64,000 bases of DNA from Planctomycetota bacterium (GTDB lineage: Bacteria > Planctomycetota > UBA1135 > GCA-002748355), in NCBI GenBank assembly GCA_027021385.1, contig JALUUL010000079.1:126329-190328 (forward strand), read 5' to 3'. The notes beneath the pieces were generated by a model. The model did no database searches. It was not told the origin of the DNA and worked only from the letters and a program-made list of their open reading frames with translations. Position numbers and translations under genes: made by a program. How positions within the stretch are numbered: the stretch's first letter is position 1; each line of letters opens with the position of its first letter. Of this stretch, positions 2,957 to 20,460 are shown piece after piece.

Positions 2957-4411
2957 CTACTTCTCTTTCCCTTTCCGGGAAGGATTGTTCTCTACGGCCT
3001 GAAGGTAGTTGTAGCTCTTTGGCGTGTGGCAGCCGGGGGCGCAGCTTCCCCCGGTCGGAAGCTTCTTGAAATTGATCGGGATCTCCCATCCCCCGAAGGG
3101 AACGCTTTTGGCGATGTGCTTCGGGAGATCGCTGGCGTGGGTGTTATGGCAGGCCCTGCAGGTCCGTCCCTTCGTCTTCTTGTTGACGTGGACGAAGTGG
3201 AGGTTACGGGTGCCGTTCCGGAAGTTCGTCAGGGTCTCGGTCCTGGGTTTGAGGAAGACCTGGGAGTCGTGGCAACTGAAGCAGAGGTTGTAGGTCTTCA
3301 TGTCGAAGGGGGCATAGAATTTCTGAGGGTATTCCTTACGGAGGATCCTGAAATTCTTGGATCCGTGGGGGTTGTGGCAGCTCGAGCAATCTCCCTCGCG
3401 GATCGGCCCATGCAGGAACTTGGATTCGCGGATCTTCTGTCCGATCGCGGCCACGACGGTCTTGTCGGGACGGACCGTCGGCTGGTCATGGCAGCTCAGA
3501 CAAAGGTCGATGACGGGTTTGTCCAGGAGCTTGGGGAATTTCGAGGCGTGGGTGTTGTGGCAGTTCTTGCATCCCTCGTTCGTCGTCAGCGCCTCGTGGA
3601 AGACCGTGGCCCCTTCGATCTCCTCTCTCTTCTCCTTGTGACAATCCAGGCAGAGAGCCTGCCTCTCGTTCTTCAGCTGGAAGGGGTGGTCGCTTGCGTG
3701 GGGGTCATGACATTTCGAACAGTCCTCGCTGACGGGGCGGTGCCAGTATTTTGCCCCTTTCAACTGCTGTTCCATGTCCGTGTGGCAGGAGAGACAGTTC
3801 GCGGAGCCTTTCTTGTTCAGAAGCTTCGGATACCAGGAAGTGTGGGGGTCGTGGCAGAGGGTGCAGGCCCCGGCGGCCACCGGGCCGTGGACGAATTTCT
3901 TCCCCATCCCCTTTCCCTGTTCATGGCACTGAGCGCAGAGCTCCCTCGTCGTCTTCGTTTTCAGAAGGGCTTCGTTTTCCGAATGGTGCGGGTTGTGGCA
4001 GGCAGTGCACATTCCATCCCGAATGGGCTTGTGCACGGTGTCATGGAGTTCCATTTCATGACAGGTCGTGCAGAGCTTCATCGGGTTCTCGATGTTCCGG
4101 AAATCGTGCTTGGTTTCTTCGACTTGCTTGTGGCAGATCCGGCATTTCCCGACCGCAACGGGTCCATGAACGTAGGTCCCTTTGGCCATTCCGGGGTGGC
4201 ATTCCGTCGTCGAGCAACTCTGTCCTTTCTTCAGGGTGGTGGGAGCACGTCCTTGAGTCCCCTGGGGAAGGAGAGGCAGGAGGTGATCCGAAAACCCGAA
4301 GGCCGGGATTCCGCTTTCGACGGCGGGGGAATCCATAGCTCCGAAGGGAAGGGACAGGAAAGGAAGGAGCGCCAACCCGAGGAAAGAGGATTTCCGCGGC
4401 ATCGCCTTCAT
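2957..4411 (-). CDS. Periplasmic ~15-heme cytochrome c (paired-CXXCH repeat type)
   Basis: 13 CxxCH plus CSTTECH and CAPGCH; repeated HGPV..G.C..CH.PH units; signal peptide; GAGGT RBS before ATG 4411. Confidence 0.93.
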   Translation of the reverse strand: MKAMPRKSSFLGLALLPFLSLPFGAMDSPAVESGIPAFGFSDHLLPLLPQGTQGRAPTTLKKGQSCSTTECHPGMAKGTYVHGPVAVGKCRICHKQVEETKHDFRNIENPMKLCTTCHEMELHDTVHKPIRDGMCTACHNPHHSENEALLKTKTTRELCAQCHEQGKGMGKKFVHGPVAAGACTLCHDPHTSWYPKLLNKKGSANCLSCHTDMEQQLKGAKYWHRPVSEDCSKCHDPHASDHPFQLKNERQALCLDCHKEKREEIEGATVFHEALTTNEGCKNCHNTHASKFPKLLDKPVIDLCLSCHDQPTVRPDKTVVAAIGQKIRESKFLHGPIREGDCSSCHNPHGSKNFRILRKEYPQKFYAPFDMKTYNLCFSCHDSQVFLKPRTETLTNFRNGTRNLHFVHVNKKTKGRTCRACHNTHASDLPKHIAKSVPFGGWEIPINFKKLPTGGSCAPGCHTPKSYNYLQAVENNPSRKGKEK

Positions 4412-4760
4412 GTGTACCTCACGGTGAAAGAGGGTCCTTCGGCCTGCTCGAAAGGGTCGTCCTGCATTCCGGGGCTCGGTGCCGGTAGGCAGATTCCCAC
4501 GATCCGGACCGAGGATCTTCAAGGGGAGGAGGCCGAGGTTCAAGAGCGTCCTCCATCCTGCGACGATCCGCCCATCGGCGGGCCTTCACCCTGCGGTCAC
4601 GCGCTCTTCGGGGAGCCATGAGCCGCGCGGAGGGCGGTTCGAACCCCCTGCGCCTGAGGGCCGACCTTCCGCCTGTGCTTCTTTCTCACAGGTTCCGGAA
4701 CGTCAAGAGACTCCGTCTCCCCGGGATTCCGGTCGAGACGGAGAGAAGCGAAGGATGGAT

Positions 4761-6485
4761 TCAATAGCCCTTTCTATGGTGGTCCTTGCCGTGGCAGAGG
4801 AGGGAGCAGCTTCCTCTCCCCATCCCCATGTCGACGAACTCAAGTTTCCCGTTCATCCTGGAGGGAGTGACGATACTGCTCCGAAAGTTGATCAGATGCG
4901 CGTTGTTCGTGCTGTTTCCCTGGTTCGCGGAGATTCCGTGTGCGTCATGGCAGGTCGCGCAGGGCGCCTTCTCTCCCTGGATGTGTTTTCGGTGCTTCCT
5001 GAAGGACTGGTCCCCCAGAATGGAGGTGCGACTGTGGCATTTGTAGCAGAGGGCGTATTGGGTCGCGGATTCGGTGATGTTGTCCTGCGTGTTATAGTTC
5101 AGGGCCAGGAGGGGGCGGTAATTGGACCCATGAGGTCCCCGAGGTCCGTTCCCTCCGAAATCTGGAGAGCTGTCGCTTTGATGGCAGTCGGTACAGGCCA
5201 TCTTGCTCGAAGTCGTCCAGGGGGGCAGGAGGCTCGGAACGTAGGAGTTCTTTCCCGCGGCCTCGATCGGATGATAGGAGGGGTTCGCCGGGTTGAATTC
5301 GAGGCGGACGTTTGTTTGTTGGATGATCCTCGAAACGTAGGCGGTCCCTCCATTCTTGTCTGCGTGACACTTGTAACAGAGCTGATAGCCGTAGGTGATC
5401 CGCTCGACCTTCTGCCCGGCGTTGTCGAGACCCGAGACTCCGAAGAGGGGGCCGGGCACTCCGGGAGGGGCGGCCGTTCCGGCCTTTGCCGTATGGGGGT
5501 TGTGGCAGTCTTGGCATTCCGCGTGCCTGGACATCGTCAGCGGATCCTCGGTCGGATCGTGGATTCCCTGCCAGCTTGAAGGGTTGTGTGCGGAGACCTT
5601 GGCGAGATCGGTGGTGATGTCCTTGGATGCGACGTTTCCGTTGTGGCATCTCAGGCAGTTCTCCTCCTCGGTGGAGAAGTTGAGGAGTCTGTGAGGTTGT
5701 CCGGCGCTGTGCGGGACATGACAGTTCGCGCAGGCGTTCTCCTGAACGGTCGTATAGGTGGTGTTGGGCCAGGGATCGGGCCCGGTCTGATTCCAGGTGG
5801 CCGAGGAGTTCGCATGCGAAGCGGTGTTCCAGTCTCTCGGGTTGTGGCAGGAGAGGCAGAGAGAACCGTTCTTGTCCGTCGTCTTGAGGAATTTCCCCAG
5901 GGAGTCGTTATGGGCGTCGTGGCATGACGTGCACTGGACGAAGCCGTTGTGGTCGAGACTCACGGGAGGCTTGATGGCCGACCCGATGAAGAAGTCGACC
6001 CCCGTTCCTCCCTTCGAAGTCGAGTAGTCGAAGGAGACGGGGTGATCATCTTGGAGATTGGTCCCAATATTGGCCTTTCCCGAGTTGAGGAACCTGGACC
6101 CGGACATCGTGATTTCAGAAGTGAGGCTCACGACTTTCCCGAGCGCGATCGTTCCATCGTGGCAGGATAGGCAGAGTTTCGTCGATCCGTTGGGCTGGCC
6201 GACGTTCCCCTTCAGGGTCGAGGAAGTATAGGGCAGGTAGGTCTGGGTGCTGTCGTCCCGATTCCATAAGGGGAATTGGGTCCGGGCCCGGTGAGGAGCA
6301 TGGCAGAAGATGCAGATTCTCTCCTCGGAGAGGGCCTTGTAGGTGCCCGGCCCGGAAACGGAGAGGTTGTGCTTCGTGTTCTTGATCGAGGTTCCGCCGC
6401 CTTGCGTGAGCGGAAGGGGGAGGGCCCCGAAGAGCAGTGTCGCCGGGCCGAGGACGACCAAGACTTTGCTGAAAACGGGAATCAT
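4761..6485 (-). CDS. ~12-heme cytochrome c with an N-terminal OmcE-like tetraheme domain
   Basis: 11 CxxCH plus CSLLCH. The N-terminal IKNTKHNLS..ICIFCHAPH..LWNR..Y.SST..KLCLSCHDG..DDHPV..QCTSCHDAH..LCLSCH follows the OmcE motif order. Confidence 0.9.
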   Translation of the reverse strand: MIPVFSKVLVVLGPATLLFGALPLPLTQGGGTSIKNTKHNLSVSGPGTYKALSEERICIFCHAPHRARTQFPLWNRDDSTQTYLPYTSSTLKGNVGQPNGSTKLCLSCHDGTIALGKVVSLTSEITMSGSRFLNSGKANIGTNLQDDHPVSFDYSTSKGGTGVDFFIGSAIKPPVSLDHNGFVQCTSCHDAHNDSLGKFLKTTDKNGSLCLSCHNPRDWNTASHANSSATWNQTGPDPWPNTTYTTVQENACANCHVPHSAGQPHRLLNFSTEEENCLRCHNGNVASKDITTDLAKVSAHNPSSWQGIHDPTEDPLTMSRHAECQDCHNPHTAKAGTAAPPGVPGPLFGVSGLDNAGQKVERITYGYQLCYKCHADKNGGTAYVSRIIQQTNVRLEFNPANPSYHPIEAAGKNSYVPSLLPPWTTSSKMACTDCHQSDSSPDFGGNGPRGPHGSNYRPLLALNYNTQDNITESATQYALCYKCHSRTSILGDQSFRKHRKHIQGEKAPCATCHDAHGISANQGNSTNNAHLINFRSSIVTPSRMNGKLEFVDMGMGRGSCSLLCHGKDHHRKGY

Positions 6486-7519
6486 GGCTCCCTCGGATGG
6501 AATTTGAGGATCTGGACCCTGGCGTTCCCACTATCGGCAACGAAGATCCTGTCCTTTGGATCGATGTAAAGCCCCGTCGGAAGGTAGAAATTCCCTAGTC
6601 CGGAACCCTTGGAGCCGACGGCAAGAAGGAGCCGGCCCTTCGGATCGAAGATCTGTATGTTGTCGAACATTCCATCTGCGACGTAGATGTGCCCTTGCGA
6701 ATCCACCGCAATTCCTTTCGGGCTGGCGAAGGTTCCCGGGCCCCGTCCGACGACCCCGAAACTCGTCAGGGGTTCGAAGGCGGGGGAGAGGATTTGGATC
6801 CGGAAGTTCATGCTGTCCGTGATATAGATCCGACTCTCGCGGTCGATACAGAGGTTCGTCGGGAAGTTGAACTCCCCGGGTTTCGCTCCTCTCCGGCCGT
6901 GCACCCCCAAGCGTTTCCCTGTGGGGTCGAAGCTCAGGATCCGTCCCCCCGTCGTGTCCAGGACCAGGAGTCTCCCCTCGTTCCGATCCCAGGCGATTCC
7001 GGTGGGTCTCCCCAACTCGTTCGGACTTCCGAACTTCCTGTGGTAGTTCCCCTCCCGGTCGAAGACGAAGATGCGTCCCAAGGTCGAATCGGAAAGGAAG
7101 ACGAGACCGCCCGGTCCGAGGGCGACCCCGATCGGGGTTTTCAGCTTGGTCCGTCCCGCATTCCGGAAGAAGAGGTGTTCGCCCGATTCGAGGTCGAGGC
7201 GATGAAGACCTCCGGCCCCGGGGTCCGCGATCCACAAGCGGTCCTTCTCGTCCACGGCGAGACCATAGGGGCTGACCAGTTGGAGTTCGTCGTGCCCGAG
7301 GAAGAAGCCGAAGATGGAGCTCCAGAACCCACGGCTACGCTCGACATCCCGCGTGGAATGATAGGCCATAAGGACTTCGACCCGGGGGTTCTCCGAGATC
7401 GGAGGCCAACTGATCCGCTCCTTCGGGACGCGGAGGAAACGTGCGGGGCCGGCGGCGCAGGAGGCGAAGGAGAGGAGGGCGAGGCAGAGGAGTCGCGGGG
7501 GACGGGGTCGAGAATCCAT
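6482..7519 (-). CDS. NHL-repeat six-bladed beta-propeller lipoprotein
   Basis: Lipobox-like FASC; repeated P.GIAVD..G.IYVAD..N.RIQIF blades; GGAGG RBS before ATG 7519. Confidence 0.9.
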   Translation of the reverse strand: MDSRPRPPRLLCLALLSFASCAAGPARFLRVPKERISWPPISENPRVEVLMAYHSTRDVERSRGFWSSIFGFFLGHDELQLVSPYGLAVDEKDRLWIADPGAGGLHRLDLESGEHLFFRNAGRTKLKTPIGVALGPGGLVFLSDSTLGRIFVFDREGNYHRKFGSPNELGRPTGIAWDRNEGRLLVLDTTGGRILSFDPTGKRLGVHGRRGAKPGEFNFPTNLCIDRESRIYITDSMNFRIQILSPAFEPLTSFGVVGRGPGTFASPKGIAVDSQGHIYVADGMFDNIQIFDPKGRLLLAVGSKGSGLGNFYLPTGLYIDPKDRIFVADSGNARVQILKFHPREP

Positions 7520-7521
7520 GC

Positions 7522-9468
7522 TCAAAACCTCCTGGCCACGGAAAGCATCGCATACAGGATCCGCTGATCGGTCGCGACGTCGAAAACCTCGTCGGAATAC
7601 CGGACTTGGAACTTCACCTCCGTAGCGCGGAATCTCTGGATCAAGTTGGACTCGAAGAGGAATCCTTTCCCTTTGTCAGTCCGATACTTGATCTTCCGCC
7701 ATTCGGCTCGGGTGTCGATCCTCGAGTTCTCGGAGAGAACCGCCAGAAGCTGGGCCTGGAGGGTCGTTCCGCGTTCCTTTCCCGTCTGGTCCTTGAATCT
7801 GGATTCGTAGGTCGTGGCGCTCGATCGGCCCTCCAGCCATTGGAGGATCCTCGTCGAGGTCGATGCGCCGAACTCCCACCTCTCGAAGGGGGTGAACTTG
7901 CTGTCGAGGTTCTCATACAGCCCGCGGACCTGATTGGGACCGGAATGGAGAGCCAGGCTGGCCTTCAACCTCGAGGAGTCGTCGAGAGTCCCCGAATCGA
8001 ATCCTCCGAGAAGGGATTGATTCGTTTCGGACCAGGCGAGTTCGATGTCGGCGAACTCCAGGATATCGAATCCGAACGTCAGGGATTGTCCGACGCTCTT
8101 GAAACGCTGCTCCGGCCGGGGAAGAAAGAGGTAATCGACGAGGATCACCTGATTCGGGAGGATTCTGCTCCCCGCTGGAATCTCGATCCTGACCCTGCCC
8201 GCCGAGACCGAGATCAGGTAATCCGTTCCGTTCTGGTAGACCGTGAGTCCGGTCGCATCGGTGATGACGATGCTGGAGAGATCCACGCTGAAGTTGTTCA
8301 GGAGAAGGGGGATGCCCGGAATATAGGTATGGCTTTCATCCAGGACGCTGACAGGCTTGTCATCACTCTGCTCGTTCTGCCAGTAGGTGTCCTGGTGGTA
8401 GTTGATGCGGAGGTTACCGAAGAAGGTCTTCTTCCGGTAATCGATATCTCCTACGTAACCCGCGCGGTTGATCGCCGCATCTCCCTGGTCCGTCCTCTGT
8501 CCCTGGAATCCGGCGCGCACGTCCAGGCTCGAAAAGAGTTCGTAGGTGAGGGTGGATGTATGCCTCCAGGTCTCATTCAGACTCGTATCGGCGTTGCGGA
8601 CCCGGAAGTGATCGAAGATGAGGTCGTGGTCGGAGGAGAGGTTCTCTCTCCATTGGAAGTGGAGACTCGCGTTTCCGATCAGGGACTCGTTGTCGTAATC
8701 GCCGTTTTGTTCCCGGTAGCGGATGGAGTTCGAGAAGGTGTCCTGGTCCTTGTTCCCGAAGTTCCACCCATGAGAAAAGAAGGCATCGAGGTCCGTGAAC
8801 TGGCTGTCGAAACTGCTGATCGTGATGTCGTTGTACTTGATCGAATACTGGAGCCTGCGTGTCTTGTCGAATCGACGTCCCTCGAACTCGAAGTTGTCCC
8901 TCGTCTCGTCGTTGTCGTCCAGCCCGCGACCTTTGTAGGTGTAATGATGGTAATGGAGCCTCGAGGGGATCCACCATTTCTTCGCGAGGAGGTCCATTCC
9001 CGTTTCGGTGACCGTGGCCTCGGTCGTTTCGAAGAAGGTCTGTCTGGTCCTCGTTTCCTGCCTGTTGGAATAGATGTGTGCGGAATAGGGATGCTGCCAG
9101 AGGATCCGGGCGTGGAAATCGTATCCAAGGTTCGTGCTGTTGATCGAACGGTTCCGGACTCCGGCCCCTCCGATCCATTGCTGTTCGAGCCCTAGCGACG
9201 TCGCGAGTTCGTATTCCAGGAGCCTGGGGTGGTAGATATCGCCGGCGAAGCGCAGGTGGAGGTCCTCTCGCAGGGTCTTCTCCTTCTCGATCAAAGTCGA
9301 ATAGTCGGTGACCCTCCGCTCGTCCCGATACTCCCCGCGGAGCTGGAAGTCTCCGCCGAACTCCGTCAGATGGAACCATGTCCGCCGCTGGGCGTTCACC
9401 GAGGACGCGGCGGCCAGGAGAACCGGCAAGACCGTGAGGCAGGCTCTCGTTCCCGCCCGGTTCTTCAT
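7522..9468 (-). CDS. Outer-membrane beta-barrel (porin of a porin-cytochrome conduit, ExtB/OmbB-like role)
   Basis: Signal peptide, many amphipathic aromatic-rich beta-strands, C-terminal ...YAMLSVARRF (terminal Phe); ATGA overlap with the upstream cytochrome gene. Confidence 0.8.
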   Translation of the reverse strand: MKNRAGTRACLTVLPVLLAAASSVNAQRRTWFHLTEFGGDFQLRGEYRDERRVTDYSTLIEKEKTLREDLHLRFAGDIYHPRLLEYELATSLGLEQQWIGGAGVRNRSINSTNLGYDFHARILWQHPYSAHIYSNRQETRTRQTFFETTEATVTETGMDLLAKKWWIPSRLHYHHYTYKGRGLDDNDETRDNFEFEGRRFDKTRRLQYSIKYNDITISSFDSQFTDLDAFFSHGWNFGNKDQDTFSNSIRYREQNGDYDNESLIGNASLHFQWRENLSSDHDLIFDHFRVRNADTSLNETWRHTSTLTYELFSSLDVRAGFQGQRTDQGDAAINRAGYVGDIDYRKKTFFGNLRINYHQDTYWQNEQSDDKPVSVLDESHTYIPGIPLLLNNFSVDLSSIVITDATGLTVYQNGTDYLISVSAGRVRIEIPAGSRILPNQVILVDYLFLPRPEQRFKSVGQSLTFGFDILEFADIELAWSETNQSLLGGFDSGTLDDSSRLKASLALHSGPNQVRGLYENLDSKFTPFERWEFGASTSTRILQWLEGRSSATTYESRFKDQTGKERGTTLQAQLLAVLSENSRIDTRAEWRKIKYRTDKGKGFLFESNLIQRFRATEVKFQVRYSDEVFDVATDQRILYAMLSVARRF

Positions 9469-10199
9469 CGATGGCCCCCTCCCTCTCCCGGGCGCCACTT
9501 CGGAGGTCTGGTCTCCATGGATTTCCGGGTTTTGCCCCTGCTTTCCTTCCCCAGGCCGGGAACGACGGTTGCCTTGATCATGTAGCGGCGCTTGGAGGAA
9601 TGGGGGTCATGACATTCCGTGCAGGATCCCTTCTCGAAGGTCTTGTGGCGTTTCCTCGTGACGAAGGTGTCCCCCGTGTGGCACCGCGCGCAGAGGGTGT
9701 CGGGATTCTTGACTTTCAGGAGGTGGGGGTATGAGGACCGGTGGTGCTCATGGCACTGGGCGCACTCGCCGGCGGCCACCGGCCCATGGACGAAGGCTTC
9801 CTCGGGGGGCTTATGGCATTTCTTGCACAGGAGCTTTTTCGGAAGGCGCAGCTCGGACAGACCCTGCCTCCAGGTGGGCTGGGAGTTTCCTCCACGGGGA
9901 GCGGTCGAATGGCAATCCCCGCATCGCTTCTCCTGGAAGGGTTTGTGGAAAAAGACCTCGACCTTCTTCAGCCGCTCCTCCTGGAGCTTGGCCCTCTCCT
10001 CTAGGGTCAGGGACCGGAGTTCAATTCGGGGAACCGGGCCGATGAAGTCGGGTGTTCCGGGAGTCCTGGGATCCGGAACCCCGTCGAAGAAGAAGGACAG
10101 GATCTCATACTTCTTGAGGGCCGTACAGGCAGCCGTCACTCCAAGGGGGCAGAAGGCCAGGAGAAGCAGGAGGGCCGGAGGACTTCGTCGGAGCGACAT
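9465..10199 (-). CDS. Lipoprotein pentaheme cytochrome c (ExtC-like partner of the porin)
   Basis: Lipobox-like VTAAC followed by LSFFFDGVP; 5 CxxCH; translationally coupled to the beta-barrel gene. Confidence 0.88.
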   Translation of the reverse strand: MSLRRSPPALLLLLAFCPLGVTAACTALKKYEILSFFFDGVPDPRTPGTPDFIGPVPRIELRSLTLEERAKLQEERLKKVEVFFHKPFQEKRCGDCHSTAPRGGNSQPTWRQGLSELRLPKKLLCKKCHKPPEEAFVHGPVAAGECAQCHEHHRSSYPHLLKVKNPDTLCARCHTGDTFVTRKRHKTFEKGSCTECHDPHSSKRRYMIKATVVPGLGKESRGKTRKSMETRPPKWRPGEGGGHR

Positions 10200-10346
10200 T
10201 CGGGAAGCCTGTCTTCGCTTGGGTCGGGAAATCGGGCGATCCGGACTCGGGCGAACCGCATCCCGAAGACCGGCCTCAGAGTCTCTTGATCCTTCCTTCC
10301 GCACCTCCGACTTCAGGAGAAAGGGAACAGGATTGCAACATGAGTG

Positions 10347-10363
10347 AGCAAGGTCCATGCCGG
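10347..10363 (-). promoter_or_regulatory. Sigma54 -24/-12 promoter for the leftward cytochrome/porin/Rieske-cytb operon
   Basis: Minus strand CCGGCATGGACCTTGCT: GG-N10-GC, close to consensus TGGCACGNNNNTTGCW, about 150 bp upstream of ATG 10199. Confidence 0.75.
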
Positions 10364-10443: not shown

Positions 10444-11199
10444 ATGCTTGGAATCGCGCGCTGGGGGGGCGCTGTCCTCTTGGGGACGATCGGGATGGCG
10501 GCCGGGGGAGAGGAAACGGTGACGGCCCTTGGCATGGAGATCTCCCCCTCCTCCCCGGTCGTCGCAGGGACCTCTGAGAGTTGCCTGTCCTGCCATCTTG
10601 ATCTTCGGGGGAGGGGGCACCCTCTTGGTGATCGAATGCCGGAGGGAAGCGGCCTGCCTGGGGAGGCGGCCTTGGGGCTCGGTTGCTTGACCTGCCATGA
10701 TTCGGGAACGGTCCGGGATGACCATCGAAAATCCCGGGCCTCCCACTTGCGGGAGATTCCTCGCGTCCTGTGCAGGCGTTGTCATCGGGATCCGGAACCG
10801 GGGTCGCGTCTGGGGCACACGATGGACCTCGGCAGGGCGCACGCTTCCGGAGGGAGGGAACGAGGGGACAGGAAGGCCTTCCTCGGTGGAGTGGACCGCA
10901 TATCCCTAGGATGCCTTGGCTGCCATGACGGAAGCGTCGCTTCGGAGGCCAAGGTCGACCTTCCCGGAGAGCCTCGGATTCCGGGAAGGGCCGGGTCGGG
11001 GCTGCAGCATCCGATCGGAGCCCGGTCCATGGTAAGAGGGGCGGAAACGACACCTCCGTCTCCGCGACCGACGAGGTCGGATGCGCGGGAAGGGATCCTC
11101 GGATGTCTGAGCTGCCACGATCCCTGGAGCCCCTGGGAATCCCAGCTCTCGAGGAACCCTGAGGACGGCGGACTCTGCAGGTCCTGCCACGTGAAATGA
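10444..11199 (+). CDS. Hexaheme cytochrome c with a C-terminal OmcE-like half
   Basis: 6 CxxCH; signal peptide; C-terminal SLGCLGCHDG..QHPIG..CLSCHDPW..LCRSCHVK. Confidence 0.85.
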   Translation: MLGIARWGGAVLLGTIGMAAGGEETVTALGMEISPSSPVVAGTSESCLSCHLDLRGRGHPLGDRMPEGSGLPGEAALGLGCLTCHDSGTVRDDHRKSRASHLREIPRVLCRRCHRDPEPGSRLGHTMDLGRAHASGGRERGDRKAFLGGVDRISLGCLGCHDGSVASEAKVDLPGEPRIPGRAGSGLQHPIGARSMVRGAETTPPSPRPTRSDAREGILGCLSCHDPWSPWESQLSRNPEDGGLCRSCHVK

Positions 11200-11293: not shown

Positions 11294-12373
11294 ATGATCT
11301 TCGCGACTCTCACCCTGAGCCTCGCTCTTCCCCTTCTTCTCCAGACGAGCCGACCCTCGGGAGGGCCGGTTACCCGGGAGTCGAAGGAGCGGGCGGGAAA
11401 ACCGGTGGAGAATCCTGTCCTTGCCGAGGTCGGGTCGGTGAAGATCCGCCAGAGCGATGTCCTTGCGGAGATCAACCGCCTGATTCCGCTGAACTTCTAT
11501 CACGGGAAGGTCCCCGTGGAGAAGATGGAATCCTTCCGGGACAAGGCCCTCCAGTCCCTGATCGAACGGGCCCTGATCCACCAGGACGCGCTCGCCTCGG
11601 GGCTGCGGGCGGGCGAGGAGGAGATCCGCGCGACATTCGAGGCCTCTCTGAAGAAGGCCGGTCCCAAGTACTCCGAACTCCCGTCCGAGGAGAAGGCGAA
11701 ACTCTTGGAAACATACCGGCCCCTCGTCGAGAGGAGGGTCTTGATCGACAAGAACGAGGCTCGTTTCGAAGCCTCCCTTCCTAAGGTCAAGGAGGAGGCC
11801 GTGAGGGCTACGTACGAGGCGAGGAAATCCAAGCTGCTGGCGCCCCGTGAGGGCCATTTCCTCCACATCCTCTTGAAGGTCGATCCCGGCGCCAGCGAGG
11901 CCGAGATCGCGAAGGCGAAGGAGAAGATGCTGAAGGCCCGGAAGGAGATCCTCGGAGGGCGCCCCTTCGCGGAGGTCGCGAAGGAGATCTCCCAGGATAT
12001 CTATGCCTCGAGGGGCGGGGACATGGGATGGGTCAAGGAGGGGAGTTTTCTCGGGGGGCCGGTCGGGGAGGCTGCGTTCAAGCTCGAGGCGGGAGAACTC
12101 TCGGAACTCGTCTCCTCGATCTATGGCTTCCATCTTGTCCAGTGTCTGGCCTGGAAACCGCGGAAGACGATGTCTTTCGAGGAAGCCAGAAAGAGTATCG
12201 AAATCGAACTCGAGGAGGCGATCCGGCGTTCGGCGCGGGAGCGCTGGCTGGCGACCCTGAGAGAGCGCTTTCCGGTGAAGATCCATCGAGTCGGGATCCT
12301 CGCGGAATCCCCGAAGGAAGAAACCGCTTCCTCGAAGCCGGCCTCCCGTCCCGGCCCGCATGGAGGGCGCTGA
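11294..12373 (+). CDS. Periplasmic PpiC/parvulin peptidyl-prolyl isomerase (SurA/PrsA-like foldase)
   Basis: Signal peptide, SurA-N-like helices, HILLKV...FAEVAKEISQD...GGDMGW...SIYGFHLV rotamase motif. Confidence 0.9.
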   Translation: MIFATLTLSLALPLLLQTSRPSGGPVTRESKERAGKPVENPVLAEVGSVKIRQSDVLAEINRLIPLNFYHGKVPVEKMESFRDKALQSLIERALIHQDALASGLRAGEEEIRATFEASLKKAGPKYSELPSEEKAKLLETYRPLVERRVLIDKNEARFEASLPKVKEEAVRATYEARKSKLLAPREGHFLHILLKVDPGASEAEIAKAKEKMLKARKEILGGRPFAEVAKEISQDIYASRGGDMGWVKEGSFLGGPVGEAAFKLEAGELSELVSSIYGFHLVQCLAWKPRKTMSFEEARKSIEIELEEAIRRSARERWLATLRERFPVKIHRVGILAESPKEETASSKPASRPGPHGGR

Positions 12374-12552: not shown

Positions 12553-13836
12553 ATGATCTGGCCGTTCCTTTTGGCCGTCTTGTCGATCTACTCGCCGCAG
12601 GCGGGGGCGCAGGACCCTCGTAACAGCCATTGCATGTCCTGCCATCTTGCGAAGGACTCGAAGCTGCTGCACGCCTTCGAGGGGAGCGTCCATGGAATCG
12701 CGGGGATCGGCTGCATCGGTTGCCATGGAGGGGATCCTGGGGGGGAGACGAAGGAGGACGGGCATCTCCGTTCGAAAGGCTATTCGGGAGTCCTGAAGCG
12801 GCGGGACATCCCCGCATTGTGCGGGTCCTGTCACGGGGACGAGGCGGAGATGCGCAAGGTCCGCCTGGATTTCCGGGTCTACGAGGACTGGAAACGGAGC
12901 AAGCACGGGCGACTAGCGGCGAAGGGGGATCCCAGGGTTCCGATCTGCAGTGATTGTCACGGGGACCACGGGATCCTTTCGCGGCTCGATCCGGCTTCAC
13001 CGACCCACCGGCGGAACATCGCCGGAACCTGCGGCTCCTGCCACTCGGATCCGGTGAAGATGGGGGCCAGCAAGCTTCCGACGAATCAGGAGAAGGAATA
13101 CCGGGAAGGGATCCATGGGGAGATCCTTTACGGCAAGCGCAAGGGGAATCCGAACCTGGTTCCGACCTGCATCGATTGCCATGGAGGCCATGGAGCCGTT
13201 CCGCCGACCGCCCGATCCGTGCCGGAGGTCTGCGGGAGTTGCCATTTCGAGGAACGGAGGTTCCTCGCGCAGAGCCCCCACGCCGAATCCTTGCGGTTCA
13301 CGGGGGAACCTTCCTGCAAGGACTGCCACGGGAACCATCACAACACGATCCCCGAGGAAGGACTGCAGGAAAAGGTCTGTATCCCCTGCCACAACGATCC
13401 CAAGGACGTAGGTACCCGGGAGGCCAAGGCCTTCGCGAGCCTCCTGGCGCGGGGAGGCCAGGCCCTGGGGCGGCTGGACAAGGCTCTCGAAGAGGCGCAA
13501 GCGAGGGAGCCTTCCTCCCTGGTCTCCATGCTCCTCGAGGCGGAATGGAAGCGGGCCGAGACTGCCTATTCGACCCTGCGTAAGGAATCGCACACCCTGA
13601 ACCGTCCCATCGTCTCCAAGGCGGTCGAGGATCTGGAGAGCATCGTTCGGACGGTCCTGGCCGTCGCCGAGAACGGGATCGACCGTGAGAAGGGGTTTTC
13701 CGAGACGGTCACGATGATGATCCTCATTGGCGTCGGGAGCGGGCTCCTGGTCGCGAGCGTGGTCGTCGTCCTCCTGCTTCTCCGCATCCTTGGCCGAGGC
13801 AAGGACAGGAAAGCTGTAAAGGCCGGAGATTCTTGA
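12553..13836 (+). CDS. Membrane-anchored nonaheme cytochrome c
   Basis: Start reassigned to ATG 12553 (MIWPFLL signal peptide); 9 CxxCH; helical stalk and C-terminal TM helix. Confidence 0.9.
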   Translation: MIWPFLLAVLSIYSPQAGAQDPRNSHCMSCHLAKDSKLLHAFEGSVHGIAGIGCIGCHGGDPGGETKEDGHLRSKGYSGVLKRRDIPALCGSCHGDEAEMRKVRLDFRVYEDWKRSKHGRLAAKGDPRVPICSDCHGDHGILSRLDPASPTHRRNIAGTCGSCHSDPVKMGASKLPTNQEKEYREGIHGEILYGKRKGNPNLVPTCIDCHGGHGAVPPTARSVPEVCGSCHFEERRFLAQSPHAESLRFTGEPSCKDCHGNHHNTIPEEGLQEKVCIPCHNDPKDVGTREAKAFASLLARGGQALGRLDKALEEAQAREPSSLVSMLLEAEWKRAETAYSTLRKESHTLNRPIVSKAVEDLESIVRTVLAVAENGIDREKGFSETVTMMILIGVGSGLLVASVVVVLLLLRILGRGKDRKAVKAGDS

Positions 13837-13837
13837 C

Positions 13838-15499
13838 ATGAGGTCGGTTCTCCTCTTTCCGTTCCGGGTTCCCTTCCTCCTTCTCAAGTGGATGTTCGCG
13901 GGACGATACCGTTTCGTGTTCCTCCTCATCCTCGTATTCGGCGGCATGGTCTTCGGGACCGTCGAGGGATGGCATTACGCTTCCAGCCCGGATTTCTGCC
14001 GATCCTGCCACCACATGGAGCCCTACTGGCAGTCCTGGTCCCGCTCGACCCACAAGCACGTCCAATGCATCGGCTGCCATTTCGAACCGGGGCTCGGCAA
14101 CGAGTTCCATGCCAAGTTCCAGGCCCTGAAACAGCTCGCCAGCGCGGTGACGGGGATGTACAGCTCCAGACCCTTCGCGGAGGTCAGCGACCGTTCTTGT
14201 CTCCGGTCGGGTTGTCACAGTACGAGGGGGCTGGGGAAGGAAGTGGAGTTCTCGAAACGGGGGGTCTTTTTCGACCATCCGAAGCATCTGGGGGAGCTGC
14301 CCTTCGGGATCAAGCTGGCCTGCATCTCCTGTCATTCCCAGGTGACCGTCGACAACCACATGGAAGTGGACCGGAACACCTGTTTCCTGTGCCATTTCAA
14401 GGGTAGCAAGGCCCCCGACGGCACCCCCGACCCGATGGAGGCCTGCGGCGTCTGTCATGGAGCCCCCCGGAAGGAACTCTCGGTCGGGGGGTTGAAGATC
14501 GACCACAAGGATTTCCTGAAGCGCGGGATGGAATGCGCCCAATGCCACCTGGAGGTCGTGTCAGGAACCGGGGAGGTCGGCCGGGGGAGGTGTCTGGGTT
14601 GCCACAACCAGCCTTCCTATCTCGAGGAGTTCGGGGACGTGGAGGCCCTGCACCTCAAGCACGTGTCGATCCACAAATTGAACTGCTATCTGTGCCACGA
14701 ACGGATCGAGCACCGTTTCCGAACCGAGGAAGGAACTGTGGCAGAGTCCCATCCTAAGGGGCTCCCGGACGGGGACTGTTCCAAATGCCACCTGGAACCG
14801 CATAGCCCCCAAGCGGCCTTCTACGCCGGAAAGGGTGCAGTCTCCGTGCAAGGCGAGCCGGATCCGATGTCCAAATACGGGTTGGACTGCTCCGCCTGTC
14901 ACGGTCTGGCCCGCCGTTCCAAGGCCGAGATCAACGCCCATTCCCGCGTGGATTCGGCGACTCTCGCCCGGGGGTCTTGCAACGGATGTCACGGGCAGGG
15001 GTACAGTGAGTTCGTGGGTCCCTTCCTCGAGAGGGTCGGGGAGGTTCAGCACCATCTCGAAAAGCGTCTCGACCGCGTGCTGGAGACCTTCCGCGGGATC
15101 GAGGAGAGAGAAGATGTCGTTCCCAGGAAGACGTTCCACACCGCGAAGAACACGGAGAAAGACCTGGCATTCCTCCGGAGGGCGCGTCCTATACACAATC
15201 CCTTCTTCGCGGTCGCTATCCTGAGGCGGGCCGACAGGGATTTGGCCGTCGTCGAAAAGGACCTTGGAGTCCCTGTCCTACCCGGACGCCCCAAGGACTT
15301 CCCGAAGGAGGGATGCCTCGTCTGCCACGAGGCCCTGCCCCCCCCGGGGAAGATCAAGCTCAAGGACGGGAAGGTCTTTTCGCACCGGATGGCCTTCAAG
15401 GCCGACGGGCCGACCTGCACGGCCTGTCACAAGGGCCCGAACCATCCGGCCAAGCCCGTCGTTCCTTACGGGGTCTGCTCCACCTGCCACAAGAAATGA
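13838..15499 (+). CDS. NapC/NirT-family quinol dehydrogenase extended to ~15 hemes
   Basis: N-terminal TM helix, then SSPDFCRSCHHMEPY..W..STHKHVQCIGCH (NapC/NirT signature); 14 CxxCH plus CLRSGCH. Confidence 0.9.
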   Translation: MRSVLLFPFRVPFLLLKWMFAGRYRFVFLLILVFGGMVFGTVEGWHYASSPDFCRSCHHMEPYWQSWSRSTHKHVQCIGCHFEPGLGNEFHAKFQALKQLASAVTGMYSSRPFAEVSDRSCLRSGCHSTRGLGKEVEFSKRGVFFDHPKHLGELPFGIKLACISCHSQVTVDNHMEVDRNTCFLCHFKGSKAPDGTPDPMEACGVCHGAPRKELSVGGLKIDHKDFLKRGMECAQCHLEVVSGTGEVGRGRCLGCHNQPSYLEEFGDVEALHLKHVSIHKLNCYLCHERIEHRFRTEEGTVAESHPKGLPDGDCSKCHLEPHSPQAAFYAGKGAVSVQGEPDPMSKYGLDCSACHGLARRSKAEINAHSRVDSATLARGSCNGCHGQGYSEFVGPFLERVGEVQHHLEKRLDRVLETFRGIEEREDVVPRKTFHTAKNTEKDLAFLRRARPIHNPFFAVAILRRADRDLAVVEKDLGVPVLPGRPKDFPKEGCLVCHEALPPPGKIKLKDGKVFSHRMAFKADGPTCTACHKGPNHPAKPVVPYGVCSTCHKK

Positions 15500-15520: not shown

Positions 15521-18500
15521 TCAAGGAGTGAGTTCCAGCTTGGGGCGGATGGCCGAGCGATATCTGAGATAGGACAGCACGATGACGGCGATCTCGAAGA
15601 TGCAGAAGAGGGCCGCATAGAGCAGTCCTCCTTCCGAGGAGCCGTAGGAATGCAGGCCCGCGGCGAGAACGAAGTTGACCCCGTAATACGTCATGACGAC
15701 GGAGAGGAAGCTGGCGATCGAAGAGACGGCCAGTCCGAAGGGGTGGAGCCAGCCCGCGAAGCGTGCATGCACGATGCCCAGGTAGACGAAGAAGGTGATC
15801 AGGGACCAGGTTTCCTTCGGATCCCAACCCCAGTACCTCCCCCAACTTTCGTTGGCCCAAATGGCGCCGAAGACGATCCCGGCCGCGAGAAAGAGGAGTC
15901 CGACCTGCATCGTCTTGTAGGTGAGGTTCGTGAGGGTCCGGAGCATCTCGGTCCTCCCGGGCCGGAACAACTGGACCCAGATGACGATATGACCGAGTCC
16001 CATGTTCAGGGCGAAGGCGGAATAGGCCAGCATGATCGTCATCACGTGGACCGACAACCAGTAGGTGTGGGCCAGGACGGGCACGAGGGGGTTGATCGAG
16101 GAATCCAGGGGCAGGTGCTCCGAGAAGAGAAGGCAGAGGAAGCCCATCAGGCTTGCAACGAGTCCGAAGAAACGCTTGCGGTAGAGGAACTCGAGGAAGA
16201 GCCCGATCGCGATCGTGCCCCAACCCATGAAAACCAGGGATTCGTACATGTCCGAGACCGGAGCCCTTTCGGCGATTGCCCATCTGAGTCCGATGCCGGT
16301 CGTGTGAGCGGCGAAACCGAGGATCAGGGCCGTCATGCCCGCCCAATATCCCTTCCGGTTCTTGACGAAACCGAAGAAGAGGATCAGCAGGAAGCTCAGC
16401 AGATAGGCCTTCCAGGCCTTCCCGAAGGCCTCGAACTCTTCGTAAAAGATCTCCAGGGATAGGGCTTCCTCCGGAGGGTAGGTCTCGGGGCCCGCTTCCC
16501 GGAGAATTCCCGTCAGTTCTTCGGCGGCCTTGCCGAAGTCCTGTGGATCCTTGTCCCTCCATGCCTTGGACATCCGGATGAAACCGGCAAAGATCCGTTT
16601 TTGCAGGTCCGACTTCGCGTCCTTGAAGTCGTTCGGAGTTTCCCATTTTCCCTGGGAATCCTTGACGGGAACGATACGGAGGGATGTGCCGCGGAGAATC
16701 CCGGAGAGTAGTTCCAGGCGGCGGTAGACCTCGAGGGCGTCCTTCTCGATCTTCGTCAGGTCTTCGTGATTGCGGTCCTTGGTGATCGCGCGACCGGCGA
16801 CCTCTTGGAACCGCGGATGCATCATGAGCCGCAGGAAGGAGAAGCGTTTCTTCCCCTCCTCCAACTCCATCAAGGCCTTGAGTTCCTTACTGTCGATCCG
16901 GATATACGGTCGATTCCGGAAATCCTCCGGGGCGAGGTTGTAGCCCCAGAGCAGTTCGAGAGAGCTCAGGCCGTCGTGCTTCCTATGCCCGGTGATCGCG
17001 GTCGCGAACTCGTTCGCGAAAGTGAGAAGGGGTTTGATTCTTCCCGAGGACTGGATGGCCCAGGCCTTGGTCTTCTCGACCGGCATTCCCGTCGGGCCGC
17101 CTGAGGCCTTCGCGGGCACGGAGGAGAGCAGGACCGCGGCCAGGAACCAGAAACCCGTCAATGCCCCCTTCGTTGCGGTATGACCCATGTTCGTGGCCTC
17201 CTGTGCGGGGTTCTTTTCCATGTTCGTCACCGACTCCTTCCTGTTCATGGGTTCCGGCCCGTCGATCCCGGGCCTCCTCGGTTTTCCGTGTCCGCGCAGA
17301 TACCAGGCGATTCCCAGGATGATCAGAAAGAAACTCGGGTAGACGATCGGGACTCCCGGGTCCTTGGAGACGGAGAGGATCGTCATGTCCGGGCCGCCTC
17401 TCTCCCCGAGCTGGTAACTGCTTTGGAAGAGCCGGAAGCCTCCGTAGTCGAGCGGGCGGTTCATCGAGATCACGGTCTCGATAGGCTCCTCGTCGATCCC
17501 GTGCGGAGTCACCTTGACCTTCGAGGCATAGGTCTTGGGACGCCTCGAACCGGGGTAGAACTCCAGGATGAAGTCCTCGAGTTCGAGACTGAAGGGCAGT
17601 TCCTTCGTCGAGCGTTTATAGGCGAAGAGGAGCGAGCCTCCTTCGAGTCCGATTTCGTCGTCCCAACCCCGGCCGATCCAGAAGGTGTTTTCCTTCCCCT
17701 TCCAGTGGGCCTTCAGTTTCAGGAAGGCGCGATTCGTCTCTTTCCCCTTCTTGGAGGATTCGACCCGGACCTCGGCCTTGGCGCTCTTCACGAACCGTTC
17801 GAGTTTGAAATCCAATCCGAGGTTTCCGACTGCGATTGTCTGCCCCTCGATGATTTCGAGGGCGGGCCCCCGCCCGATCGAGGCCGAGAGTTGGATCCAG
17901 AACCTCTTGCCTCCGTCATGGAGGATCGAGACCAAGGGCTTCTTGCCGGCGGAATTCGCCTCGAGGCGGATCCTTTGAACGAGGGGGGCTCCCTTCTGGC
18001 CCCGGATCGAGTTGAAGGTAGGGAAATTGGCGAAGACCTTGTGGATCTCTGTGTGGCTCTTCCCCCGGACCTCGACGACGGCGGCGGGATTACTGCCCGA
18101 TCCGGGGACGTTGCGCAGCTTGCCCTGGACGATCTTGGCTTCAGGCATGAAGGACAGGACCTTCACCGAGATTCCTTCCCCGGCCTGGACGACCTTCCCG
18201 AGAGAAGCGGGAAGGGGGAGGTCCAGGGGGGAACCTTTCTCGGACACGAGGACACGGATGCTGGAGCCACCGGTCTTTCGCTCGGGGAGACGGCCTTTCA
18301 AGGCTTCCGGGTCCCGGATCACGAGGAACTCGATCTCGACCGGGCCGACGTCCTTCCTGCGGAAGTCGGCATGGTCGGCGATCAGCCATTGCCTGCCCTC
18401 GACACCCATCCCGGAGAGCTGGAACTGGATGCCTGGGCTCCCCTCCACCCCGGCGTCCGTAAGGTGGACGTAAGGGGTCCCATCCTCGAGGAAGCGTTCG

Positions 18501-19024
18501 ATCGAGAGGCCGGGATGCCCTTCCTCCTCCTCGAGGAGGGTGATCCCCGCGAGTCGCACGGTGTCGGGGAGTTCGAGGATCTCGTGGTAGGGCTTTCCTT
18601 TCAGGGGCTTCCAGCGTAGATCGAGGTGGCTGCGATCCAGGAAGAGGGTCCTCGATTCGGTTCCCTCCTGCACGGCCATCCGCCCCTCGTATCCGAAGGT
18701 CCGGGACACCCAACCTCCGAAGAGGAGCAGGACGATCGAGAAGTGGGTGAGGACGAAGGCCCACTGATGCCGTTTGATCGGGATCCGGTTGATGACCGCC
18801 ACGATCAAGTTGACGGCGATCAGGAAGAGGAAGAGATCGAACCAGGCCGTCCGGTAGACCCAGGATTGGGCGAAGGCCCTTGAGGTCGAGGATTCGATCA
18901 GGGTCCCGACGATCATCGCGACCACCCCGAAGATGAGCAGGACCATCGTGAACTGGACCTTGCCCAGGAAGCGGAGGAAGCGGAGGGCCGCGGGTTCTGT
19001 CTTCGTGCTCATGCGGGCGTCCAT
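15521..19024 (-). CDS. ccsBA: Fused System II cytochrome c synthase (ResB/CcsB plus CcsA/ResC)
   Basis: N-terminal ResB-like TMs (GTLIES, LTHFS, ISMNRPL..GGFRLFQSSY) and C-terminal WWD domain GAIWANESWGRYWGWDPKETW, GLHSYG. Start could be 19012, 19024 or 19033. Confidence 0.95.
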   Translation of the reverse strand: MDARMSTKTEPAALRFLRFLGKVQFTMVLLIFGVVAMIVGTLIESSTSRAFAQSWVYRTAWFDLFLFLIAVNLIVAVINRIPIKRHQWAFVLTHFSIVLLLFGGWVSRTFGYEGRMAVQEGTESRTLFLDRSHLDLRWKPLKGKPYHEILELPDTVRLAGITLLEEEEGHPGLSIERFLEDGTPYVHLTDAGVEGSPGIQFQLSGMGVEGRQWLIADHADFRRKDVGPVEIEFLVIRDPEALKGRLPERKTGGSSIRVLVSEKGSPLDLPLPASLGKVVQAGEGISVKVLSFMPEAKIVQGKLRNVPGSGSNPAAVVEVRGKSHTEIHKVFANFPTFNSIRGQKGAPLVQRIRLEANSAGKKPLVSILHDGGKRFWIQLSASIGRGPALEIIEGQTIAVGNLGLDFKLERFVKSAKAEVRVESSKKGKETNRAFLKLKAHWKGKENTFWIGRGWDDEIGLEGGSLLFAYKRSTKELPFSLELEDFILEFYPGSRRPKTYASKVKVTPHGIDEEPIETVISMNRPLDYGGFRLFQSSYQLGERGGPDMTILSVSKDPGVPIVYPSFFLIILGIAWYLRGHGKPRRPGIDGPEPMNRKESVTNMEKNPAQEATNMGHTATKGALTGFWFLAAVLLSSVPAKASGGPTGMPVEKTKAWAIQSSGRIKPLLTFANEFATAITGHRKHDGLSSLELLWGYNLAPEDFRNRPYIRIDSKELKALMELEEGKKRFSFLRLMMHPRFQEVAGRAITKDRNHEDLTKIEKDALEVYRRLELLSGILRGTSLRIVPVKDSQGKWETPNDFKDAKSDLQKRIFAGFIRMSKAWRDKDPQDFGKAAEELTGILREAGPETYPPEEALSLEIFYEEFEAFGKAWKAYLLSFLLILFFGFVKNRKGYWAGMTALILGFAAHTTGIGLRWAIAERAPVSDMYESLVFMGWGTIAIGLFLEFLYRKRFFGLVASLMGFLCLLFSEHLPLDSSINPLVPVLAHTYWLSVHVMTIMLAYSAFALNMGLGHIVIWVQLFRPGRTEMLRTLTNLTYKTMQVGLLFLAAGIVFGAIWANESWGRYWGWDPKETWSLITFFVYLGIVHARFAGWLHPFGLAVSSIASFLSVVMTYYGVNFVLAAGLHSYGSSEGGLLYAALFCIFEIAVIVLSYLRYRSAIRPKLELTP

Positions 19025-19153
19025 CCCGGTCAACCGGGTACGGAGGAAGGCTCGGTCCGCCCTTCCCCGGGAGGCTTCCCCCCCCCGGGAGGTCCGGCGG
19101 TCATTCGGGTCCGAGGGAACCCGAGCGGAACGATGTCGGCGACGCGGAGGTAG

Positions 19154-19447: not shown

Positions 19448-19567
19448 CTTCTCCCGGTCGCTCACCTCGGAGGCGGCTCCGAGGAGCCCGCCTAGGGGCG
19501 GGAAGACGAGAAACTGAAAACCGTTCGTTGGACACCTTCCCTGCCACAGATGGAAAGGATGAAAGTC

Positions 19568-20251: not shown

Positions 20252-20276
20252 CGCATATCCATCCTCTGAGGTGGGA

Positions 20277-20309
20277 AAGGGCGCCGGACCCTTCGGGTTC
20301 GGCGCCCTT
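20277..20309 (+). terminator. Strong stem-loop after the omcE-like gene (terminator or mRNA-stabilising hairpin)
   Basis: AAGGGCGCCGGACC-CTTCG-GGTTCGGCGCCCTT, 14-bp stem with one G-U pair; no long U-tract. Confidence 0.65.
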
Positions 20310-20460
20310 CGCATGTCCGGATCGGATCTTGCTCCGTTGCTTTCCGGCGGAACCCGAGAGGCCCGTGAGTGCCGTTCCGGCCGGGAACGAGCTGCGGCTT
20401 TTTCCCGCTCCGGGGGGCCGCTAGCCTGGAGCCGTCCCTCTCCTGGAGAGCCTGAATACG

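Follow-up and report, generated by a model that had tools for sequence, protein, structure and literature searches.

Within a 64,000-nucleotide stretch of Planctomycetota DNA (contig JALUUL010000079.1, forward-strand positions 126,329–190,328; hereafter the window), which has a G+C content of 64%, we analyzed P0001, a 574-aa secreted dodecaheme cytochrome of the UetJ type encoded at 4761–6485 on the minus strand. Judged by its alignment and profile matches, its N-terminal module is a true homologue of the subunit of OmcE nanowires, and the rest of the chain is predicted to form a heme wire resembling MtrA. The reading that we favor, and to which we give about even weight, is that P0001 would be the low-copy base joining an OmcE-type filament to an outer-membrane conduit. 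What is established here is homology, a conserved architecture, a conserved linkage, and a predicted interface.

The gene had previously been described from the letters of the DNA alone (the sequence-only reading), which gave these coordinates. The coordinates were retained, with the correction that the gene is on the minus strand, since the plus strand of 4761–6485 is riddled with stops and the coding open reading frame (ORF) lies on the minus strand. The assignment of P0001 rests on this ORF, the motif count, and family comparison. A signal peptide, read off the translation, covers approximately residues 1–28 (6402–6485, minus strand) up to a presumed cleavage site, and has no lipobox cysteine. 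Eleven CxxCH motifs begin at residues 58, 105, 185, 210, 252, 277, 324, 370, 431, 480, and 509, and a single CX3CH is found at residue 560. This layout (4 + 7 + 1) bears out the motif set that had been claimed, with four OmcE-like CxxCH followed by seven CxxCH and one CX3CH. The OmcE-homologous tetraheme module (residues 31–216; 5838–6395, minus strand) comprises hemes 1–4 together with H39, H65, H148, and H192, and was delimited by its sequence and profile match to 7tfs_A, the invariance of its histidines, and its predicted contact face. The eight-heme extension (residues 217–574; 4764–5837, minus strand), a putative MtrA-like heme wire with the terminal pattern C-x3-CHG-xx-H-xxxx-Y, was delimited by the AlphaFold2 (AF2) model, its match to 6r2q_A, and the presence of the same module in other settings.

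The ATG of P0001 overlaps the TGA of the NHL propeller gene at 6482–7525 (ATGA), with a GGGAG box 5 nt upstream, and the propeller gene itself adjoins the stop of the 658-aa barrel candidate at 7522–9498. These overlaps couple the translation of P0001 to that of the propeller and the barrel, in agreement with the earlier statement that the gene directly follows an NHL propeller in the barrel operon.

Residues 18–215 of P0001 align to positions 10–231 of the 232-residue chain of PDB entry 7tfs_A, the OmcE of G. sulfurreducens (E 1.7e-32), and a profile of 62 relatives matches 7tfs_A at E 2.4e-46 and 9yuq_N at E 3e-35; the latter chain we take to belong to the paper on OmcE of Desulfuromonas soudanensis. 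The same entry, 7tfs, ranked first when the P0001 model was searched with Foldseek (E 1.5e-5, probability 1.00). Across the 74 family sequences, the 12 motif histidines and 15 further histidines are invariant. Among these are the four motif histidines of the head and H39, H65, H148, and H192 (74/74), so that the claimed presence of all the OmcE distal histidines was upheld. P0001 thus shares with OmcE (7TFS, 9yuq_N) homology over the whole OmcE chain, four CxxCH, four further ligand histidines, and an N-terminal K-H-N/D-L-S arm; like the omcE genes, it is encoded together with a large barrel and propeller lipoproteins. An OmcE subunit, however, is a stand-alone protein of ∼200–230 aa that ends just past heme 4, whereas P0001 runs 358 residues further and carries eight more hemes. 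Because its chain continues in this way, P0001 holds an OmcE module without being an OmcE subunit itself.

This layout is widely conserved. Scanning species-representative genomes returned 372 relatives, and locus counts were made on the best 80 loci, which belong to Planctomycetota, Acidobacteriota, Nitrospirota, Pseudomonadota, Verrucomicrobiota, Bacteroidota, Myxococcota, Calditrichota, Zixibacteria, and other phyla, and the closest relatives among them are Planctomycetota metagenome-assembled genomes (MAGs) at 57%–66% identity. The identical set of 11 CxxCH and one CX3CH was present in all 73 complete relatives, the other seven loci being either cut by a contig end (six) or broken (one, L017). 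Since every complete relative has the same motif set, P0001 is no one-off fusion, and the set lies far beyond chance. The invariant CX3CH suggests, in addition, that the "undecaheme" cytochrome of the UetJ type really binds twelve hemes. An exhaustive profile-free search returned 5629 representatives at E ≤ 0.001 and 539 clusters (50% identity) at E ≤ 1e-30, and in a word-indexed search 7794 of the 8000 scored candidates were at E ≤ 1e-20. The public names of these relatives were only "cytochrome c3 family protein," "predicted CXXCH cytochrome family protein," and "hypothetical protein." A tblastn search of the plasmid collection gave no match.

When the window proteins were compared with the 80 loci by tblastn, a recurring order emerged: solo OmcE-like gene, NHL propeller 2, small cytochrome, barrel, NHL propeller 1, and 12-heme gene. 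An NHL gene was directly upstream of the 12-heme gene in 69 of the 74 loci with room for one, while the divergent barrel was detected upstream in 39 of 58 loci and the small (pentaheme-type) cytochrome in 35 of 56. Here, as in other Planctomycetota, the pair formed by the solo gene and NHL propeller 2 is set apart by a peptidyl-prolyl isomerase (PPIase), further cytochromes, and a fused ResB-CcsA.

The gene here called the solo (19550–20251, plus strand) encodes a stand-alone OmcE-like tetraheme cytochrome of 233 aa with four CxxCH, a candidate filament subunit of the UetA type. It matches 9yuq_N (E 1.5e-12) and 7tfs_A (E 5.9e-11) and is 31% identical to the head of P0001; together, the two are the only OmcE-like matches in the 3.7-Mb genome. 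A survey of co-occurrence had been proposed in the sequence-only reading, on the grounds that an anchoring role would be contradicted if homologues mostly occurred without an OmcE-like subunit. We observed the opposite: where 7 kb or more of sequence was available upstream, 45 of 48 loci contain a separate OmcE-like gene, although in one of them (L007) it is a six-heme relative and not a four-heme solo. In the loci with shorter flanks, the count was 6 of 32. Five genomes with no solo at the locus were searched whole, and a short-frame solo was found elsewhere in four; the fifth was that of L017. Five further genomes all had both forms. In an even sample of 201 Planctomycetota, five had an OmcE-like match, three of them clearly with both forms; of the other two, one is a fragmented genome with the long form only and the other has solos plus a 287-aa frame at the expected distance. 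Among 251 genomes of a betaproteobacterial order (represented by a Thiobacillus-labelled MAG), nine were positive, eight of these with both long (at least 665 aa) and short (at most 360 aa) frames. These counts include related genomes, which are not independent of each other.

In a tree of 74 fused heads and 52 solos, computed with a quick method, the two kinds fall on opposite sides of one branch (SH-aLRT 96.5). Because a single branch separates them, the fused and solo modules would be, on this phylogeny, old paralogues inherited together, the heads of the 12-heme proteins forming a clade apart from that of the OmcE-type solos. The four-heme solos stop exactly two residues past the last CxxCH in 48 of 49 cases, the remaining one having three, and this end point is where the chain of P0001 continues. 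The two kinds of gene also differ in what follows them. A strong hairpin lies directly after the stop of the solo gene (20252–20330, plus strand), with a folding energy of −47.7 kcal/mol (z −5.8) that was reached by none of 200 shuffles. Over all loci, the 80 nt after solo genes had a median folding z of −1.6, with values below −2 in 20 of 52, while after fused genes the median was +0.48, with values below −2 in 2 of 74. Because the hairpin is common after solo genes and rare after fused genes, the solo fits the part of a major subunit and P0001 that of a minor one. The hairpin resembles the terminator or stabilizer of major pilin genes, and the trend is seen in other phyla as well. L017, in an Acidobacteriota chromosome (genome G001), is the only searched genome without a solo; its fused gene is broken, with six CxxCH in a 511-aa ORF, and the two losses may represent joint decay.

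Then, the complex of mature P0001 (29–574) and mature solo (29–233) was modeled, each protein with its own alignment and as chains without hemes. The ipSAE was 0.78, 0.79, and 0.80, while three controls all gave 0.00; the pLDDT of the partner was 84 or higher, and the runs shared at least 95% of their contacts. The ipSAE mark applied is reached by 116 of 157 solved complexes and by 2 of 215 mismatched pairs, rates that are only rough for models made with own alignments. Confident contacts involve residues 33–35, 40, 42, 44, 55–59, 62, 64–69, 71–73, 178–179, and 192–193 of P0001 and residues 84–88, 132–152, 194, 215–218, 223–228, and 233 of the solo. In this predicted interface, the N-terminal arm and heme-1 face of P0001 meet the heme-4/C-terminal face of the solo, with C58 (heme 1) touching C227 (heme 4), and the extension takes no part. 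Consecutive subunits of a filament would be expected to meet in this way, P0001 standing where the next subunit would be, and the model shows a fused head that has kept a filament-type face. The multimer prediction with the 19550–20251 product, which had been proposed as a check on the docking idea, therefore came out in its favor (ipSAE 0.79 against 0.00 for the best control), with the reservation, taken up below, that solved filaments may be remembered.

The extension was modeled well. AF2, with a 62-row alignment, gave P0001 a mean pLDDT of 77.9 and a pTM of 0.73, most of residues ∼160–574 exceeding 85, and the ESM Atlas model has a pLDDT of 0.85. In a structural search against all representatives, MtrA (6r2q_A) was the sole strong match (Z 9.6, root-mean-square deviation 3.9 Å, 215 of 265 residues aligned), the superposition spanning model residues 142–533 and MtrA residues 78–333; the next matches were OmcS (Z 5.2), OcwA (Z 4.9), and OmcE (Z 4.3). 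Foldseek alone gives a weak match to MtrA (E 0.078). As in MtrA (PDB 6R2Q chain A), onto which it superposes, the extension would be a linear heme wire encoded with a large barrel. MtrA has 10 hemes, however, and P0001 has 12, carries an OmcE head, is not encoded directly upstream of the barrel, and scores 60.4 bits with the NCBIfam DmsE/MtrA model TIGR03508, below the cut-off of 192.2.

The last ∼300 residues of P0001 also close much longer proteins, where they follow Geobacter-type repeats of the form CX4CH...CXXCH or unnamed 100-aa repeats. The ESM Atlas neighbors, in turn, include clusters of 331–369 aa that match just residues 215/269–574 of P0001; one such extension-only cluster (369 aa) is commonest in Thermodesulfobacteriota, the phylum of Geobacter. 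Because long variants and extension-only clusters share this end, P0001 reads as a variable front part set on a conserved C-terminal module. P0086, P0111, P0113, P0147, and P0094 all terminate with C-x3-CHG-xx-H-xxxx-Y. The class of 900–1760 aa (P0086, P0147, P0111, P0113) has only the C-terminal ∼300 residues in common with P0001, and P0111 has about eight repeats of a ∼100-aa domain without a Pfam match ahead of the shared module. P0077, P0079, P0084, P0102, and P0032 were considered as stand-alone extensions and set aside, as they are apparently fragments or have miscalled starts.

A layout of three tandem OmcE-like units, with hemes 5–8 as the second, was also considered and was undone by controls with unrelated multiheme cytochromes. 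Hemes 5–8 do mirror the motif order of hemes 1–4, and hhalign aligned unit 1 with unit 2 in register (97.2%, E 3.7e-11, 116 columns) and unit 2 with the solos (98.1%), with H224 opposite the N-terminal histidine of the solos. The control of unit 2 against the 528-aa cytochrome of the window, however, scored nearly as high (96.5%, E 9.4e-10). The family profile matches 7tfs in a single stretch only, and an ESM Atlas search with part of P0001, made for the same question, returned only its own family. The tandem layout is accordingly kept as no more than an idea.

Part of this system has already been described in the literature. In Ca. Tenderia electrophaga, the uet cluster encodes the tetraheme UetA, the PPIase UetB, the barrel UetC, the NHL proteins UetH/I, and the undecaheme UetJ, followed by CcsAB (bioRxiv 10.1101/2022.05.06.490989); it has also been reported in Gallionella (PMC10734462) and Leptothrix (PMC13386937), and the Gallionellaceae paper gives 11–12 motifs in UetJ when CX3CH is counted (PMC10734462). 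Like UetJ, P0001 is a secreted cytochrome of ∼570 aa with 11 CxxCH and no other named domain, encoded after NHL genes, and a tetraheme cytochrome, a PPIase, a barrel, two NHL proteins, and CcsAB are all present in the window between 2957 and 21690. The gene order in Tenderia differs, and its cupredoxin and triheme c7 genes have no counterpart seen in the window. By gene content and motif counts compared with the published descriptions, P0001 is read as the UetJ type and the solo as the UetA type. The fusion is therefore not a new find, but belongs by gene content to a type already named.

According to Petersen et al. 2026 (PMC13712944), the minimal omcE cluster of Desulfuromonadia combines OmcE and a large barrel with two multiheme cytochromes and two propeller lipoproteins, and these six parts match the content of the P0001 locus. 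The same authors postulate an OmcE-like anchor and state that the operons of Desulfuromonadia hold no candidate for an anchor or a tip, whereas a 12-heme candidate is encoded within the cluster here. Nanowire anchoring and electron entry are named as open questions in recent reviews (PMC12307469) and by Petersen et al., and the 12-heme family offers a concrete anchor candidate with a predicted polarity and named residues. The terminator or anchor of chaperone-usher pili, a comparison raised by Petersen et al., is an analogue only: it is likewise a minor paralogue that binds on one side and stays at the outer-membrane pore, but it has no relation in sequence or fold, and the link here would be made by heme–His and heme–heme contacts in a protein that conducts electrons.

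Already known, then, are the UetJ family, the uet and omcE clusters, and the OmcE and MtrA-like folds. Three points appear to be new: a true OmcE module is recognized in the UetJ type, the uet and omcE clusters are seen to consist of the same parts, and the head, by prediction, accepts a solo subunit on a single face. "OmcE" is absent from the available text of two Uet papers (bioRxiv 10.1101/2022.05.06.490989, PMC13386937), and our literature search, which left most subscription journals outside its reach, found no paper linking Uet with OmcE and one review that names both, unconnected. A figure legend in a peat preprint (10.64898/2026.05.27.727921) terms some cytochromes of 8–13 hemes in Acidobacteriota and Verrucomicrobiota clusters "OmcE-like"; this preprint may already cover members of the P0001 family, which bears on priority.

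A mechanism can be proposed on this basis. The solo subunits would polymerize head to tail, as OmcE does in Geobacter. At the heme-4/C-terminal end of the last solo, P0001 would replace the next subunit, making contact through its N-terminal arm (around H39) and heme-1 face; that H39 serves as the ligand in trans is a guess by analogy with OmcS. The heme-4 end of P0001 would accept no further subunit, the chain continuing instead into hemes 5–12, and because this end is taken by its own chain, P0001 would be a one-ended, low-copy base. It would thus end the filament on one side and prolong the heme chain by eight more hemes, which would carry electrons between the filament and the barrel with its periplasmic cytochromes, assuming that P0001 is inserted in the barrel in this orientation. 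OmcE itself has one interfacial heme that takes a histidine from the adjacent subunit (PMC9473688, PMC12954529). At a rise of 29–34 Å, about 30 Å per four hemes, eight hemes would span ∼60 Å, enough to cross a barrel. The overlapping codons tie the production of P0001 to that of the barrel and one NHL propeller, and the solo gene forms a unit apart, closed by its hairpin and provided with a second propeller. The suggestion in the sequence-only reading that the OmcE-like end could template or dock the filament is partly supported, the filament-like predicted interface, confined to the N-terminal face, and the MtrA-like extension agreeing with docking; a nucleator and an anchor added last are indistinguishable in these data.

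Several observations weigh against P0001 as the base of a filament. The AF2 model of the OmcE head is poor, with pLDDT below 50 for residues 56–148, and the successful complex model may be a memory of solved OmcE filaments (7TFS, 9YUQ), in which case it would speak for likeness and not for binding. The position equivalent to mtrA, directly upstream of the barrel, is occupied by a pentaheme cytochrome and not by P0001. A free N-terminus is not universal, since poly-proline precedes the N-terminal His motif in some Nitrospirota members and P0094 has a 515-aa multiheme domain fused directly before its STVHNLS motif. An ESM Atlas neighbor hints that Thermodesulfobacteriota hold the extension-only form; if so, filaments there would attach without a fused head. 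We know of no filament reported from these phyla. Finally, the alignment with MtrA is co-linear with P0001 and the N-terminus of MtrA is periplasmic; because of this, a direct analogy could place the OmcE head in the periplasm and not outside.

The last point is the core of a reversed arrangement, in which the C-terminal end (heme 12 with its CX3CH, H569, and the terminal Tyr) would face outward as in MtrA, and the head would lie in the periplasm, docking partners there or a periplasmic stack of the solo in place of an external filament. The C-terminus, invariant in length and sequence even in the long variants, favors this polarity, and the additions at the variable N-terminal side are rich in hemes and might span the periplasm as wires, an idea put forward for PCC3 (PMC10734462). 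We nevertheless consider it improbable, as the OmcE filaments of Geobacter and Desulfuromonas are extracellular (PMC13712944) and the solo is predicted to touch P0001 on its N-terminal face alone; the ∼100-aa repeats at the front of P0111 also look somewhat more like repeats of surface proteins, which is a weak argument. More serious, though still unlikely in our judgment, is an ordinary porin-cytochrome conduit, with P0001 as a long outer-membrane or surface cytochrome of a Uet/Mtr-like complex, the solo as a small monomeric partner or shuttle, and the likeness to OmcE reduced to a shared heme-packing module, without any filament. In the Uet literature, UetJ and UetA are indeed depicted as conduit cytochromes outside the cell, with no evidence of a polymer in the available text (bioRxiv 10.1101/2022.05.06.490989); the MtrA-like extension agrees with it, and OmcE-like tetraheme cytochromes are so widespread that not all need be nanowires (PMC13712944). 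Against such a conduit, the solos retain all eight ligand histidines (a conservation that is partly circular, as solos were chosen by motif pattern) and end in a strict two-residue tail (48/49), the cluster has the same parts as proven omcE nanowire clusters (PMC13712944), and the two proteins are predicted to meet head to tail, as subunits do in a filament. Least probable of all, to the point of being only a marginal candidate, is a P0001 that caps the far end of the filament or is scattered along it, offering extra hemes to minerals. Petersen et al. do ask whether an OmcE-like tip protein with more exposed hemes exists (PMC13712944), and a one-ended subunit could occupy either end of a polar filament. 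The translational coupling to the barrel and propeller genes and the MtrA-like extension, however, point to the membrane end, and P0001, its heme-4 face being occupied by its own chain, is unlikely to be interspersed among the filament subunits.

If P0001 is indeed the filament base, a wider proposal follows, which we regard as possible but short of probable. The uet clusters of iron oxidizers and electrode-feeding bacteria and the omcE clusters of metal reducers would be one ancient machine distributed over ten or more phyla. In it, the 12-heme protein would be a covalent filament stub and anchor, joined to the filament by the head-to-tail His-to-heme contact of the subunits and running, like MtrA, through the barrel to the periplasm, and a dedicated NHL propeller would act as holding chaperone for each OmcE-fold protein, much as in chaperone-usher pili. 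The presence of these parts in Uet organisms suggests that OmcE-type wires may serve electron uptake and iron oxidation besides metal reduction.

Among the other genes of the window, the propeller coupled to P0001 (6482–7525, minus strand) is a six-bladed NHL protein (Pfam NHL, 1e-32) and a probable lipoprotein. The 658-aa outer-membrane barrel candidate (7522–9498, minus strand) is UetC-like and of barrel size, with no Pfam match and no match below E 0.1 among PDB sequences. Directly upstream of the barrel is the pentaheme cytochrome (9465–10358, minus strand), identified by its motifs and bearing the lipobox-like sequence VTAAC, and downstream of P0001 lies the 528-aa cytochrome (2957–4543, minus strand), with 13 CxxCH, one CX3CH, and one CX4CH, which is DmsE/MtrA-like but below the cut-off. 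Paired with the solo gene is the second NHL propeller lipoprotein (20461–21690, plus strand), recognized by Pfam and by the lipobox LLGSC in its translation. Between the two halves of the cluster are a SurA-like, UetB-like PPIase (11294–12373, plus strand), assigned by a domain match, and a 1170-aa fused ResB-CcsA protein of system II cytochrome c maturation (15521–19033, minus strand), homologues of which, split or fused, flank several other loci.

Adjoining the PPIase gene is a 251-aa six-heme cytochrome (10444–11199, plus strand), which ends ...CHVK, as the solos do, and is kept beside the PPIase in Planctomycetota loci. Its C-terminal half resembles OmcE hemes 2–4, with hhalign values of 96.7% over 103 columns against the fused heads and 96.1% over 104 columns against the solos. 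It would be a third OmcE-related gene, with the caution that hhalign scores are inflated among heme proteins.

Some members of the family have unusual forms. In five Nitrospirota (Thermodesulfovibrionia) loci (L018, L019, L022, L023, and L024), the fused protein has a poly-proline stretch of 20–25 residues between the signal peptide and TKHNLS, while the solos found in L019 and L022–L024 are without it. P0015 (919 aa) has an NHL propeller in one frame with the full 12-heme protein, which reflects either a genuine fusion of the coupled genes or their merging during gene calling. In the betaproteobacterial order, genomes G224, G248, G264, G294, G403, and G412 encode the OmcE-headed protein in frames of 820–960 aa, and in the ESM Atlas an 895-aa Pseudomonadota cluster matches residues 6–574 of P0001. 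The 922-aa "undecaheme" OccP of Ca. Dechloromonas occultata (bioRxiv 10.1101/695007), likened by its description, may be of this longer OmcE-headed kind.

The cluster has more respiratory genes around it. A cytochrome b truncated at the start of the window lies within 1–2930, and this region together with 12562–15499 holds a five-heme cytochrome with a C-terminal membrane helix, an AhpC/TSA-TPR protein, a nine-heme cytochrome, and a 553-aa NapC/NirT-type cytochrome with 14 CxxCH. As a group, these genes could represent the inner-membrane end of the pathway.

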